Program-made: the position numbers and the translations under genes
Shown: piece by piece, positions 9,959 through 55,618 of the stretch
Numbering within the stretch: position 1 is the stretch's first letter
Layout of the letters: the number at the start of each line of letters is the position of its first letter
Source of the DNA: Gaiellaceae bacterium
Lineage (GTDB): Bacteria; Actinomycetota; Thermoleophilia; Gaiellales; Gaiellaceae
Direction of reading: 5' to 3'
Assembly: GCA_035763525.1 (NCBI GenBank)
Contig: DASUAX010000089.1
Coordinates: forward strand, 884 to 64,883
DNA: 64,000 bases
Notes under the pieces: model-generated
What the model was told of the DNA's origin: nothing
The model's input: the letters and a program-made list of their open reading frames with translations, nothing else
Databases searched by the model: none

Positions 9959-11008
9959 GTGAAGCGTCTCATCTCGCTCGCCGTGCTCGCCGTCGCGATC
10001 GCGGCCGTCGCCGCCGGCTGCGGCTCGAGCAAGTCGGGCTCGGGGACGACCACCACGACCGCTACGACGACGTCGCAGGGCGGCGGCGGTGGGACGTTCA
10101 AGGTCGGCCTCTCCACCGACACCGGCGGCCTCAACGACCGCAGCTTCAACCACCTCGCCTACGTGGGCCTGCAGCAGGCGGGCAAGGAGCTCGGCGTGCA
10201 GACGCGAGTCGTCACCGCAGCCTCGCCGGCGGACTACATCCCGAACCTGACCGCGCTCGCGCGGCAGCACTACGACCTGATCATCGGCGTCGGCTTCACC
10301 GAGATCAACGCGATGAAGGCCGTCGCGAAGAACTTCCCCTCGAGCCACTTCGCGATCGTCGACGTGTCGAACGCCGACGAGGGCGGCCTGAAGAACGTCC
10401 AGGGCCTGCTCTTCAAGGAGCAGGAGGCGGGCTACCTCGCCGGCTACGCGGCCGGCCTCGCCGCCAAGGACCGCGGCGGCAACACGGTCTCGTCCGTCGG
10501 CGGGATGAAGCAGCCGCCGGTCGATCGCTACATCGCCGGCTACCAGGCGGGCGCGAAGGCGGCGTTCCCGGGCGTGCACACGCTCAACGGCTACTCGCAG
10601 GACTTCGAGAAGCAGGCGCTCTGCAAGGAGGTCGCGCTCAACCAGATCGCCGCCGGCTCCGTCGTCGTCTTCCAGGTCGCGGGCGGCTGCGGCCTCGGTG
10701 CGCTCGACGCGGCGAAGGGCAAGAACGTCTGGGGCGTCGGCGTCGACGCCGACCAGTCCTACCTCGGCGACTACATCCTCACCTCGGCGCTGAAGCGCGT
10801 CGACACCTCGGTCTTCGACGCGATCAAGGACGCCAAGGAAGGCAACTTCAAGGGCGGCACCGATACGATCTACGGCCTCGACGTGAACGGCGTAGGCATC
10901 GGCAAGTTCTCGCCGAAGACGCCGAAAGGCATTCCGGCCAAGGTCGCCCAGGTGAAGCAGGAGATCGCCTCCGGGAAGATCAAGAACATCCCGACGACGG
11001 TCAAGTAG
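9959..11008 (+). CDS. BMP-family (PnrA/Med-like) ABC substrate-binding lipoprotein
   Basis: 349 aa. Lipobox AAGCGSS, Thr/Gly linker, then FKVGLSTDTGGLNDRSFN typical of BMP nucleoside-binding proteins. Confidence 0.9.
   Translation: MKRLISLAVLAVAIAAVAAGCGSSKSGSGTTTTTATTTSQGGGGGTFKVGLSTDTGGLNDRSFNHLAYVGLQQAGKELGVQTRVVTAASPADYIPNLTALARQHYDLIIGVGFTEINAMKAVAKNFPSSHFAIVDVSNADEGGLKNVQGLLFKEQEAGYLAGYAAGLAAKDRGGNTVSSVGGMKQPPVDRYIAGYQAGAKAAFPGVHTLNGYSQDFEKQALCKEVALNQIAAGSVVVFQVAGGCGLGALDAAKGKNVWGVGVDADQSYLGDYILTSALKRVDTSVFDAIKDAKEGNFKGGTDTIYGLDVNGVGIGKFSPKTPKGIPAKVAQVKQEIASGKIKNIPTTVK

Positions 11009-27599: not shown

Positions 27600-27603
<4 letters not shown>
26998..27603 (+). CDS. DedA-family membrane protein (start uncertain: 26977, 26998 or 27019)
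   Basis: Contains [21 protein letters not shown] and [16 protein letters not shown] motifs and about 4 TM helices. Confidence 0.8.
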
Positions 27604-29436
<1,833 letters not shown>

Positions 29437-29444
<8 letters not shown>

Positions 29445-34327: not shown

Positions 34328-34921
34328 TCAGTCGAGCTGAGCGAACGCCTGCTCGAACACCGCGCGGGGCTGGGCGCCCGGCACGATCAGCCGCCGGTCG
34401 AGCAGGAACGCCGGGATCCCGGTGACCCCGATCGACTGCGCCTGCGCCGTCAGGCCGTGCACGCGGTCGCGGTAGTCGTCGCTCCCGAGCACGCGCTCGA
34501 CGTCGTCGCCCGGCAGGTCGGAGAGAAGCCGCCGCAGCTCGTCGTGGTCGCCGATATCGGCGCCGTCGCGCCAGTAGGCGTCCATCAGGCGGTCGTGCAC
34601 CTCCTCGTGCCGGCCGAGGTCGCGTGCGAGCTCCGTCAGCCGCAGAGCGTCGAGCGTGCGCGGGACGACCTCGGGGTTCGGCGCGTAGTCGAGCCCCTCC
34701 TCCGCGAATCGCCCGCGCAGGCCCACATGGAAGCGGTCGCCGTAGCGGGCGAGAAGGTCGGCGCGGGGAAGGCCGCCCGGCGGGTATTCCGGGTGCAGGT
34801 CGAACGGGAGCCACGTCACCTCGGCGTCGAACTCGCGCCGGAGCCACTCGGCCAGGGGCTGGCCGAGGCGGCAGAACGGTCAGATGTAGTCCGACCAGAC
34901 GAGCACGTCGTGCGCGGCCAC
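34328..34921 (-). CDS. DsbA/FrnE-like thiol oxidoreductase, selenoprotein candidate (TGA at 34880-34882 read as Sec)
   Basis: The minus frame is continuous: V(34921)AAHDVLVWSDYI-U-PFCRLGQPLAEWLRREFDAEVTWLPFDLHPEYP... and runs to the stop at 34328. The TGA sits exactly where the family has CPxC. The track shows only the downstream 163-aa piece. Alternative GTG start at 34906. Confidence 0.75.
34847..34867 (-). promoter_or_regulatory. candidate bacterial SECIS hairpin for the DsbA-like gene
   Basis: CUCGGCCAG-CCC-CUGGCCGAG: a perfect 9-bp inverted repeat starting 12 nt after the UGA. Confidence 0.45.
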
Positions 34922-34923
34922 GA

Positions 34924-36189
34924 CTACACCTCCAGCGCGAGCAGGTCGTCGAGCGTCTCTCGTCGGCGGATCAGCCGCGCCTCGCCGTCTCCGACGAGCA
35001 CCGCCGCCGGCCGCGGCACCGCGTTGTAGGTCGACGCCATCGCGAGCGTGTACGCGCCGGTCACCGGCACCGCCAGGATGTCCCCGCGCTCGGGCCGCGG
35101 CAGCTCGACGCGCTCGATCAGCACGTCGCCGGACTCGCAGTGCTTGCCTGCGACGGCGTACGCGCCGTCGGGGTCGGCCTCCGCCCTCGTCGCGACCAGC
35201 GCCGCGTAGCGCGCGTTGTACATCGCGGGCCGCGGGTTGTCGGACATGCCGCCGTCGACCGTGACGTACGTCGTCGCCGCGCTCGCACGCTTCACTCCAC
35301 CGACGGTGTAGAGCGTGACTCCCGCGCGCGACACGAGCGAGCGTCCCGGCTCGAGCACGAGCTCCGGCTCGGGGAGCCCCTGCAGCTGCCAGGCGCGCCG
35401 CAACTCGCCGGTCAGCCCGCCGACGAACTCCTCGACGGTGAACGCCGGCTCCTCGAGCACGTGCCGGACGCCGAGCCCGCCGCCGAGATCCACGACGCGG
35501 GGCGTCCACCCGTGCTCCGCGCGCAGGCGCGCCGCGAACTGCGCGACCCAGTCGACCGTCATCAGCGACGCGCCGAAGTGCATGAGCTGCGAGCCCACGT
35601 GCACGTGCAGCCCCTCGCAGTCGGGCAACCGGCCGACGAGCTCGACGGCGTCCTCCGGCGGCAGCCCGAACTTGGAGCCGTGATGGGCGGTCTTCACCGC
35701 CTCGTGCGTGTCCGCCTCGATCCCGGGCGTCACGCGCACCAGGAAGCGCGTGACGCCGGCGTCACGCGCCCGGTCGAGCTCCTCGAGCGAGTCGAGCACG
35801 ACGAGCGCGGTCGCTTCTGCAGCGGCGCGCAGCAGTGCGTCCTCCTTGTTGTTCCCGTGGACGACGACCCTCTCTCCGGTGAGGCCGGCGCGAAGGGCGA
35901 ACTCGAGCTCGCCGGACGTCGAGACGTCGGCCCCGAGCCCCTCCTCGGCGAACAGGCGCAGCACCGCGACGGAGGGAAACGCCTTCGTCCCGTAGACCAC
36001 GAGTGCCCCCGGAGCGGCGGCGCGGTAGGCGCGTGCCTGGCTCCGCAGCGTCTCCTCGTCGTAGACGAGGAGCGGCGTTCCGAACTCGCCGGCGAGCTCG
36101 GACGCGCGTACGCCGCCGAGGAGGAGCTCGCCGTCCTCGACCGCCGTGCCGTCCGGGAAGAGGTCCTTCGTCGTCGCCACGTCAGGCAT
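34924..36189 (-). CDS. lysA: diaminopimelate decarboxylase
   Basis: 421 aa with a YGTKAF region, HVHVGSQ, EPGRSLV, CESGD and full-length family resemblance. Confidence 0.95.
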   Translation of the reverse strand: MPDVATTKDLFPDGTAVEDGELLLGGVRASELAGEFGTPLLVYDEETLRSQARAYRAAAPGALVVYGTKAFPSVAVLRLFAEEGLGADVSTSGELEFALRAGLTGERVVVHGNNKEDALLRAAAEATALVVLDSLEELDRARDAGVTRFLVRVTPGIEADTHEAVKTAHHGSKFGLPPEDAVELVGRLPDCEGLHVHVGSQLMHFGASLMTVDWVAQFAARLRAEHGWTPRVVDLGGGLGVRHVLEEPAFTVEEFVGGLTGELRRAWQLQGLPEPELVLEPGRSLVSRAGVTLYTVGGVKRASAATTYVTVDGGMSDNPRPAMYNARYAALVATRAEADPDGAYAVAGKHCESGDVLIERVELPRPERGDILAVPVTGAYTLAMASTYNAVPRPAAVLVGDGEARLIRRRETLDDLLALEV

Positions 36190-54250: not shown

Positions 54251-55618
54251 GGCGACGAAGTCCCGGCGCCGGATCAGCGCCAGGGCCACGACCGCGCCGG
54301 CTGCGGCGACTCCCGTGCCGACGAGCAGGATGTCGTGCAGGCCGTGCACGAACGCCGCCGGCGTCCGAGCGTTCCCGGTCTTCGCCGAGAAGATCGCGCC
54401 CAGCGCCGCGATGCCCGTTGCGATCCCGATCTGGCGGAACGTGTTGTTGATGCCCGAGGCCATCCCGGCGCGCTCGACGCGCACCGTCGACACCGCCGTC
54501 GTCGCGAGCGGCGCGTTCACGAGCCCGATCCCGACGCCGCCGATCAGGAACCCGGGAAGCAGCACCGTCCAGTGTGAGCTCGTCGTGACGCGGCTCATCG
54601 TCCACATCGCGACCGCGTTCAGCGCGAGCCCTGTCCCGATCAGCGCGCGGATGGGAACGCGCGCGCTCAGCCGCCCCGCGAGCGGCGCCGCGAAGAACGA
54701 GAGGACCGACAGGGGGAGGAAGCGAACCCCCGTCTCGAGCGCGGACAGGTGGAGGATGTCCTGGAGGTACAGGGTCAGGTACAGGAACATCGAGAACATC
54801 GACGCCGAGATCGCGAACGCGGTCGCCTGGGCGCCGACGAAGGCCGGGCGGCGGAAGAGCGCGAGGTCGATCATCGTGTGCCCGCCCCGCGCCTGCGATG
54901 CGACGAACACGATCAGCGCGACCGCTGCGACCGCGAACAGCGCCAGGATGAGGGCGCTGGCCCAGCCGTGGGCGTTCCCCTCGATCAGCGCCAGGATCAG
55001 GCAGAAGAGGCCGATCGTGAACGTGACGAGACCGAACGGGTCGAGCCTGCTGTGCTCCGGGTCCTTCGACTCGTGCAGTTGGCGAACACCGAGCGCGATT
55101 GCGGCGACCCCGATCGGGATGTTGACGAAGAAGATCCACCGCCACGAGATCCACGACGTCAGGGCGCCGCCCGCAAGCGGTCCGATCGCGACCGCCGCGC
55201 CGATCACCGCGCCCCAGAGGCCGAATGCCGTGCCGCGCTCCTTGCCGTGGAACTCCTGCGAGAGCAGGGCGAGCGCGGTGGCGAACATCATGGCGCCGCC
55301 GATCCCCTGCAGGCCGCGGGCGATGATCAGGAAGAGCGGGTCGAACGCGGCGCCGCAGGCTGCGGAGGCGGCCGTGAAGAGCACGATCCCGAGCAGGAAC
55401 AGGCGCTTGCGCCCGAACAGGTCGGCGAGCGCTCCTGCGGTGAGGACGCACGTCGCCAGTGCGAGCGCATAGGCATCGACGACCCACTGCAGCTGCGAGA
55501 ACGACGCCGTCAGCGCATGCTGGATCGGCGGCAGCGCGACGTTCACGATCGTGATGTCGAGCAGCAACATGAAGGTCGCCGTGCAGACGGCGACCAGCGT
55601 CCACCACTTCCTCGCCAC
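54230..55618 (-). CDS. MFS transporter, DHA2 (14-TM, EmrB/QacA-like)
   Basis: 462 aa with LLDITIVNVALP, LADLFGRKR and 14 hydrophobic segments. Confidence 0.9.
   Translation of the reverse strand: MARKWWTLVAVCTATFMLLLDITIVNVALPPIQHALTASFSQLQWVVDAYALALATCVLTAGALADLFGRKRLFLLGIVLFTAASAACGAAFDPLFLIIARGLQGIGGAMMFATALALLSQEFHGKERGTAFGLWGAVIGAAVAIGPLAGGALTSWISWRWIFFVNIPIGVAAIALGVRQLHESKDPEHSRLDPFGLVTFTIGLFCLILALIEGNAHGWASALILALFAVAAVALIVFVASQARGGHTMIDLALFRRPAFVGAQATAFAISASMFSMFLYLTLYLQDILHLSALETGVRFLPLSVLSFFAAPLAGRLSARVPIRALIGTGLALNAVAMWTMSRVTTSSHWTVLLPGFLIGGVGIGLVNAPLATTAVSTVRVERAGMASGINNTFRQIGIATGIAALGAIFSAKTGNARTPAAFVHGLHDILLVGTGVAAAGAVVALALIRRRDFVASGPQAA

Follow-up and report, generated by a model that had tools for sequence, protein, structure and literature searches.

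The gene described here lies on the minus strand of a 64,000-nucleotide stretch of contig DASUAX010000089.1 (assembly GCA_035763525.1) from a Gaiellaceae bacterium, hereafter the window. Comparison with its relatives makes it highly probable, in our judgement, that the locus encodes a 197-residue cytoplasmic FrnE-type DsbA-like thiol-disulfide oxidoreductase with selenocysteine (Sec) at the nucleophilic first redox position (U14-P-F-C17). The minus-strand frame opens with GTG at 34921-34919, passes an in-frame TGA at 34882-34880 and closes with a terminal TGA at 34330-34328, there being no further stop; it reads VAAHDVLVWSDYI-TGA-PFCRLGQPLAEWLRREFDAEVTWLPFDLHP, the peptide after the TGA begins PFCRLGQ, and the count of 197 residues includes the TGA position. 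The initial annotation had stated that this frame continues upstream of 34819 with the TGA as its only break, which the sequence confirms, and had proposed a Sec-containing FrnE/DsbA-like oxidoreductase. That proposal is supported, at the level of sequence, by the conservation of the TGA and its flanks, by a hairpin directly downstream of the TGA and by the existence of a published selenoprotein family of the same type.

Family, fold and active site

For profile searches and sequence searches of the Protein Data Bank (PDB), the TGA was read as Cys. Of the 197 residues, 6-193 then match positions 2-190 of the 191 in the Pfam DSBA profile (PF01323), at E = 3.3e-28 and 99.2 bits (cut-off 25.6); no NCBIfam model matches the protein. 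In the PDB, the protein is closest in sequence to S. coelicolor SCO1869 (3gl5, E = 1.5e-17), followed by D. radiodurans FrnE (5cnw/5cp1, E = 9.5e-17). When the protein is aligned to 3gl5 and 5cnw, "vwsdyiCPFCrlg" falls on "iwsdiaCPWCyvG" and the TGA stands exactly on the first Cys of CPWC, where the initial annotation had placed it in reading the motif as UPFC; in the Cys orthologues P0011, P0012 and P0075, too, the residue opposite the TGA is the first Cys of their motif, CPFC. The segment 34820-34921 aligns with the strand-CxxC-helix region of the solved FrnE/DsbA structures. Further along, the cis-Pro loop, which is matched by sequence only, reads …GVTGIPAFLLD… and aligns with GATGVPFFVLD in SCO1869 and GITGVPFFVLG in FrnE; its G168 and P170 are invariant in alignment A1. 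The only Cys in the protein is C17. The N-terminus does not resemble a signal peptide, and the protein enters β1 directly. Judged by these matches, the protein is a FrnE-type (COG2761/PF01323) DsbA-like thioredoxin-fold protein.

We made an AlphaFold2 model of P0012, a natural Cys orthologue that is 70% identical to the window protein (predicted local distance difference test score 85.3, predicted template modelling score 0.82). The model shows β1 (4-10), CPFC (14-17) capping α1 (15-31), β2 (33-39), a helical insertion and a final β-β-α arrangement. Its best Foldseek matches in the PDB are the FrnE entries 5co3, 5cnw, 5coh, 5cp1 and 5xwh together with SCO1869 (3gl5), with E = 6e-12 to 8e-11 and template modelling scores of 0.78-0.84. 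The 163-amino-acid (aa) open reading frame (ORF) in the mechanical ORF list matches the DSBA profile only from position 32 to position 190 (of 191) and takes in no more than the C-terminal 83% of the domain. The initial annotation was therefore right to call it a C-terminal part lacking the redox motif, and by the model its product would begin inside β2, without β1, the redox motif or α1.

The window protein shares with Cys-type FrnE (5cnw, 5co3, 5xwh) and SCO1869 (3gl5) the fold, judged by the model of P0012 (template modelling scores of 0.79-0.84), about 30% identity, the position of the CPxC motif, the G-V/I-P loop and the lack of a signal peptide. It differs from them in the predicted Sec in place of the first Cys, in reading U-P-F-C rather than C-P-W-C, and in its length of 197 aa versus 239-260 aa. 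The C-terminal Cys-containing tail of D. radiodurans FrnE, which the PDB C239S entry 5cp1 implies for that protein, is absent: the window protein stops at residue 197 and the FrnE alignment ends at residue 211 of 260. This tail is a trait of the D. radiodurans FrnE subgroup and does not define the family.

Conservation of the in-frame TGA

A scan of one genome per species returned 447 confirmed relatives, and we examined the best 80 of these 447 (57-92% identity). Because the query carried Cys at the site, the selection of loci was not biased toward TGA. The 80 loci come from 78 Gaiellales/Thermoleophilia metagenome-assembled genomes (MAGs), two of which supply two loci each. The codon at the predicted Sec position is TGA in 79 of the 80 loci and TGT in the remaining one (L007, the gene for P0012), so that the TGA is conserved across the order. 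The flanks of the codon are conserved as well: S, D, P, C and R are found in all 80, W, Y and I show one or two conservative changes, and F is replaced by Y in three. The orthologues cover the whole length of the 197-residue protein. Rather than beginning at the downstream GTG, most carry an ATG or GTG start at codon -13 exactly, counted from the TGA (V in 32 of the 80, M in 25), and they conserve WSDYI-TGA-PFCR.

The two MAGs with doubled loci, MFD00962.bin.2.40 (L048 and L068) and OTE_64_metabat_291 (L025 and L071), each hold two TGA-carrying contigs; these are either paralogues or strain mixtures in the bin. A separate observation concerns L017 (6093-6679), where the TGA and the hairpin are kept and a one-nucleotide (nt) deletion just after them (GCCGATGGCTCC versus GCCGAGTGGCTCC) shifts the frame, the result of either an assembly error or a decaying copy.

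We compared the proportions of nonsynonymous (pN) and synonymous (pS) differences on either side of the annotated start by the Nei-Gojobori method over all pairs. For codons -8 to -1 and +1 to +20 relative to the TGA, pN is 0.196 and pS is 0.275; for the following 40 codons, pN is 0.246 and pS is 0.507. Given the lower pN, the N-terminal piece is at least as constrained as a protein as the part that follows. Its pS is about half as large, and there is therefore an extra constraint on silent sites, as expected of an RNA structure lying over a coding sequence.

The databases tell a matching story about annotation. Among the 120 closest proteins in a collection of 5.8 billion (69-96% identity), whose named entries come from Gaiellaceae MAGs, 117 are calls of 147-182 aa that miss the N-terminus; the other three, at 202-204 aa, are complete and read WSDY[IL]CPFCRLG. 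The expectation that standard annotation would shorten the gene is thus borne out, and with 117 of the 120 closest entries affected the mis-annotation is real and systematic.

These comparisons bear on two other explanations of the locus. In the first, the 163-aa ORF from the GTG at 34819 is the true product and the 34 codons before it form a leader that is untranslated or regulatory, such as a short upstream ORF of 13 codons closed by the TGA. A GTG is indeed present at 34819, and gene callers give such an ORF both here and in 117 of the 120 closest entries. However, a product of this kind starts in β2, the segment upstream of it shows in-frame conservation at the protein level both before and after the TGA, with a lower pN than the annotated part, and this segment can be aligned with the N-terminal ends of the solved homologues and the full-length Cys orthologues; furthermore, the conserved start 13 codons before the TGA is preceded by GGAGG. 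We regard this explanation as very improbable. In the second, the gene is a pseudogene, or a TGC or TGT was turned into TGA by a sequencing or assembly error. The TGA is one substitution away from either Cys codon, and one orthologue (L017) does carry a downstream frameshift. Against this, the same TGA is found in 79 of 80 independently assembled species-level genomes, and the frames are otherwise intact, under purifying selection and accompanied by a co-evolving hairpin, so that a decayed or misread gene is effectively refuted and is the least probable of the explanations that we weighed. The conservation of the TGA and its flanks among orthologues, taken with the pN and pS values, is what excludes it and what strongly disfavors the downstream GTG start.

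The downstream hairpin and the decoding of UGA

The favored explanation, a full-length Sec-containing protein, calls for a selenocysteine insertion sequence (SECIS) downstream of the UGA. In the window, the upper stem CUCGGCCAG-CCC-CUGGCCGAG occupies 34867-34847, beginning 12 nt past the TGA, and forms a perfect 9-bp stem with a CCC loop; below it, past a one-base bulge, is a lower stem. By itself, the hairpin has only a modest edge in stability over shuffles of the same dinucleotide composition (z = -2.3; 5/200 fold equally well), which is unsurprising because the DNA is 72% G+C. The significance of the hairpin comes from the comparison of orthologues and not from the fold of a single sequence.

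When the sequences are folded one by one, a hairpin is found at the same distance from the UGA in essentially every TGA orthologue, in all clades. The common architecture is a lower stem GCCG/UGGC from +11 and an upper stem of 6-7 bp with a 7-nt loop. The apical loop begins at +23 in 53 of 77 folds, the commonest loops being AGCCGAC (25) and AGCCCAC (10). Codon +9 is Thr (ACG) in most orthologues and Leu (CUG) in the clade of the window; with this change the loop AG pairs with CU and a CCC loop is left. The perfect 9-bp stem that the initial annotation described 12 nt downstream is therefore present as described, but its 9 bp are an elaboration specific to the window's clade; what is conserved is the core of 6-7 bp with its 7-nt loop and the lower stem.

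Several further comparisons show that the hairpin is conserved and co-evolving: (i) with the structure held in a fixed register, 85% of cells are paired, versus 26-45% after the partners have been displaced by 1-3 columns; (ii) the basal pair of the upper stem is C-G in 22 cases, G-C in 12 and A-U in 3; (iii) codons +5 and +11 change together and stay exactly complementary, with CTC(Leu)/GAG(Glu) found 19 times, GTC(Val)/GAC(Asp) 10 times and ATC(Ile)/GAT(Asp) three times; and (iv) when the 15 codons after the TGA were resampled synonymously, with codon usage taken from the rest of the genes, the real sequences had a mean minimum free energy (MFE) of -22.8 versus -18.5 kcal/mol for the recodings, a gain in stability of 4.3 kcal/mol, with p<=0.05 in 39% of genes.

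The gene in L007 (10001-10588, TGT at 10040) is the sole Cys orthologue of the 80. It has no stability excess over synonymous resampling (z = +0.4) and no comparable fold, the downstream hairpin having been lost; it looks like a clean natural replacement of Sec by Cys with decay of the SECIS.

A second hairpin, GCGCCG-GUU-CGGCGC, lies 3' of the SECIS-like one at +45 to +59 and encodes RRFGA. In alignment A2 (columns 51-65), 89% of its cells are paired and two pairs show double-sided changes; in the window (34838-34824, minus strand) it is weaker (GGCGCGAGUUCGACGCC). It may extend the recoding signal, or it may simply follow from the coding sequence.

The minimal SECIS of Escherichia coli fdhF begins 11 nt after the UGA and has G23 and U24 in its loop. 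With fdhF and the bSECISearch consensus, our hairpin shares its place within the coding sequence after the UGA, an upper stem starting some 12-13 nt on and a loop at +23, and the commonest orthologue loop, AGCCGAC, has a G at +24. It differs from the bacterial consensus in that the 3-nt CCC loop of the window has no G in the MFE fold and that some orthologue loops (AACCCAC) have none either; binding by SelB is a prediction. Published descriptions give a guanosine as typical of the apical loop (PMC1088965). The three loci with the loop AACCCAC at +23 to +29 (L039, L056 and L080) fall outside that description.

Scans for other in-frame TGAs and for the Sec machinery bear on how the UGA is decoded. 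A scan of both strands of the 64 kb for TGAs with coding-type codon-position G+C on both sides, in frame, returned only the TGA at 34882-34880. A stricter version of the scan returned nothing from the window, because merely 13 codons precede that TGA. Applied to the 1.30 Mb of orthologous loci, the both-sides-coding scan revealed a second candidate selenoprotein gene, …RPVAL[VI]FGSYT-TGA-PPFRRQLGELEEL…, in 11 loci, all of them Gaiellaceae. With Cys at the TGA, this gene matches Pfam T4_deiodinase (PF00837, E = 5.5e-30), with the TGA at FGSYT*PPF. It shares its contigs with the FrnE-like gene, at a distance of 9-10 kb, and has a hairpin a few bases past its UGA; the window has no copy. There is precedent for such a gene: a family of bacterial selenoproteins that are deiodinase-like and have Sec at the matching motif has been published (PMC1088965, PMC9312934). 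Since two unrelated known selenoprotein families share contigs, each with its TGA at the canonical Sec site, we have good indirect evidence, read from sequence, that the lineage decodes UGA as Sec.

A number of results weigh against Sec insertion at this site. No selA, selB or selD was found among the window genes scanned against Pfam (51 of 66, the rest being 15 short calls, mostly <170 aa), a tRNA scan found no tRNA gene in the 64-kb window, and tRNA-Sec was not found by the same means in any of the 80 loci (1.30 Mb). A tblastn search of the window and the 80 loci with E. coli SelA and SelD probes gave no match, a result that is uninformative because all loci represent one syntenic neighbourhood. 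As for the hairpin, RNAalifold gave no consensus structure for 71 distinct segments downstream of the UGA, and strict column-wise covariation is modest; both are explained by differences among clades, some of which keep the hairpin through a bulge or a one-base shift of register. An apical-loop G is present in 67 of 77 MFE folds, mostly at +24, and absent from 10 of 77, the window's included, where the uppermost A-U and G-C pairs would have to open to expose a G. Rfam gave no match at the gathering score anywhere in the window, and a permissive regional scan gave only a meaningless microRNA match (E = 5.7).

Some of these observations would also suit a readthrough of the UGA that does not involve Sec, in which near-cognate Trp or Cys, stimulated by the hairpin, yields a full-length WxxC or CxxC protein free of selenium. 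The searches of the window and the 80 loci turned up no Sec machinery, the window's MFE loop lacks the typical G, and a hairpin 3' of a stop codon can in general promote readthrough. Nevertheless, the site is that of the family's catalytic Cys, where Trp would abolish activity; TGC and TGT are one mutation away, yet TGA is kept in 79 of 80 species; related contigs carry a second TGA gene at a canonical Sec site; and UxxC DsbA-like proteins are an accepted selenoprotein family (PMC1088965). We consider readthrough of this sort improbable, if somewhat less so than the downstream start. A reassigned genetic code was also considered and rejected: TGA is the usual terminator in the window and ends 46 of 64 called genes, the FrnE-like gene included.

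A plausible scenario for the production of the selenoprotein is as follows. Translation would begin at the GTG at 34921, probably on a lysA-frnE transcript. SelD would supply selenophosphate and SelA would turn Ser-tRNA(Sec) into Sec-tRNA(Sec), as the pathway is described (PMC9312934). The stem-loop from +11 to +40 would act as a bacterial SECIS. SelB, with GTP, would bind both this hairpin and the Sec-tRNA(Sec) and deliver the latter to the A site of the ribosome; Sec would then be inserted at the UGA at 34882-34880 in place of termination, while the terminal UGA, which has no hairpin, would terminate. The product would alternate between a selenol/thiol form and a Sec14-Cys17 selenenylsulfide and would carry out thiol-disulfide exchange, or act as an isomerase, like Cys-type FrnE. 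A selenol is more acidic and more nucleophilic than a thiol; here it would be the attacking nucleophile and would speed the attack step.

Genomic setting, known relatives and meaning

The positions of the features are collected in Table 1. Gene calling by log-odds of codon-position G+C, with start optimisation, gave 66 genes in the window. The FrnE-like gene lies in a housekeeping neighbourhood that includes lysA, an MMPL transporter, leuS, comEA/EC, holA, murJ, lepA, hemW, hrcA, dnaJ, prmA, ABC transporters and aminotransferases. Only 2 nt separate the lysA stop from the GTG at 34921 on the same strand, and about 59 of the 80 orthologous loci likewise have lysA upstream in the same orientation; given the short gap and the conserved synteny, the two genes are probably co-transcribed. 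No functional tie between the FrnE-like gene and lysine synthesis is apparent. Contexts of the type 'ctggaggt', resembling the Shine-Dalgarno-like site of the window, were seen in several orthologues.

Table 1. Positions of the FrnE-like gene, its parts and neighbour in the window, and of the deiodinase-like gene in orthologous loci
Feature	Sequence	Position	Strand	Basis or remark
Full coding sequence, FrnE-type DsbA-like selenoprotein (predicted)	window	34328..34921, stop codon included	-	V/M-AAHDVLVWSDYI-U-PFC-RLGQ…AQLD
Start codon GTG, 13 codons 5' of predicted Sec codon	window	34919..34921	-	orthologue start position
Shine-Dalgarno-like GGAGG, 7 nt 5' of GTG, within final lysA codons	window	34929..34933	-	sequence reading; putative function
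In-frame TGA, predicted Sec codon, residue 14, first position of U-P-F-C	window	34880..34882	-	alignment and orthologues
TGC, resolving Cys of UxxC, residue 17	window	34871..34873	-	Cys in 80/80 orthologues
SECIS-like stem-loop, +11 to +40 from U of UGA	window	34843..34872	-	MFE fold; lower stem GCCGC/GUGGC
Shortened ORF, 163 aa from GTG 34819, as in mechanical ORF list	window	34328..34819	-	not the real N-terminus
lysA (diaminopimelate decarboxylase-type pyridoxal-phosphate decarboxylase), directly upstream	window	34924..36189	-	Pfam Orn_Arg_deC_N and Orn_DAP_Arg_deC
Deiodinase-like gene	L024	20136-20336	+	TGA scan
Deiodinase-like gene	L025	9445-9627	+	TGA scan
Deiodinase-like gene	L029	18190-18372 (TGA 18280)	+	TGA scan
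Deiodinase-like gene	L030	TGA 9352	+	TGA scan
Deiodinase-like gene	L038	TGA 19751	+	TGA scan
Deiodinase-like gene	L041	19310-19510	+	TGA scan
Deiodinase-like gene	L042	TGA 10066	+	TGA scan
Deiodinase-like gene	L043	19498-19656	+	TGA scan
Deiodinase-like gene	L062	TGA 19747	+	TGA scan
Deiodinase-like gene	L070	19513-19713	+	TGA scan
Deiodinase-like gene	L079	TGA 20107	+	TGA scan

Two other genes of the window deserve mention. At 27600-29444 on the plus strand, about 5 kb from the FrnE-like gene, there is a 614-aa thioredoxin-fold protein with an N-terminal Thioredox_DsbH domain (DUF255, PF03190, E = 8e-76) and without an in-frame TGA. At 54315-55472 (plus strand) a 385-aa ORF has an atypical codon-position pattern, with a third-position G+C (GC3) of 0.93 and GC2 > GC1, and Pfam has nothing for it at E<=1e-5. 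Possible explanations are a mis-called frame and a protein of low complexity or rich in Pro/Ala/Arg.

There is ample precedent for a DsbA-like selenoprotein. The 2005 Sargasso Sea study of Zhang, Fomenko and Gladyshev (PMC1088965) had a 'DsbA-like protein' with the UxxC motif, from COG2761, to which FrnE belongs, among its new selenoprotein families, the type was found in 2006 in the genomes of Anaeromyxobacter, Desulfovibrio and Desulfotomaculum (PMC1794560), Peng et al. counted it in 41 organisms in 2016 (PMC5029168), and a 2026 review has the entry 'DsbA-like protein form 1, PF01323, UxxC' (PMC13188914). With these published proteins (for example NIP15863.1; they are likened here by description) the window protein shares the Pfam/COG family, the UxxC motif with Sec first, widespread Cys homologues and a stem-loop directly 3' of the UGA; in contrast to their sporadic occurrence, the Sec form in Gaiellales is near-fixed (79/80), and it is syntenic with lysA. 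The gene type and the recoding mechanism are thus already known, a textbook case that opens no new mechanism. Full-text searches found no literature linking Gaiella, Gaiellales or Thermoleophilia with selenoproteins, and both the occurrence in this lineage and the near-fixation of the Sec form appear to be unreported.

For annotation, the consequence is that the gene described here and at least 117 close database entries lack the catalytic N-terminus. Such shortened models give a dead fragment for any inference about function, structure or the redox proteome, and Sec-aware gene calling would be enough to put this right. The orthologues also form a natural data set on the retention of Sec over Cys, with one clear change from Sec to Cys, accompanied by loss of the hairpin, among 80.

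We are evenly divided on a broader proposal: that the Sec form is a vertically inherited, almost never reverted core gene across Gaiellales, linked to lysA and accompanied in part of the order by a deiodinase-like selenoprotein, that the order as a whole requires selenium, and that the SECIS of some members works without an apical-loop guanosine. If true, a SECIS without this G would be a variant beyond the published bacterial consensus, and the Gaiellales, which are abundant and largely uncultured actinobacteria of soil and the subsurface, would have an unrecognised, order-wide need for selenium, masked in every public annotation by shortened calls of 163-165 aa. As it stands, our result indicates that Gaiellales/Thermoleophilia use Sec, and that a thiol-disulfide oxidoreductase of theirs, as predicted from its conserved UGA, retains it in 79 of 80 species.

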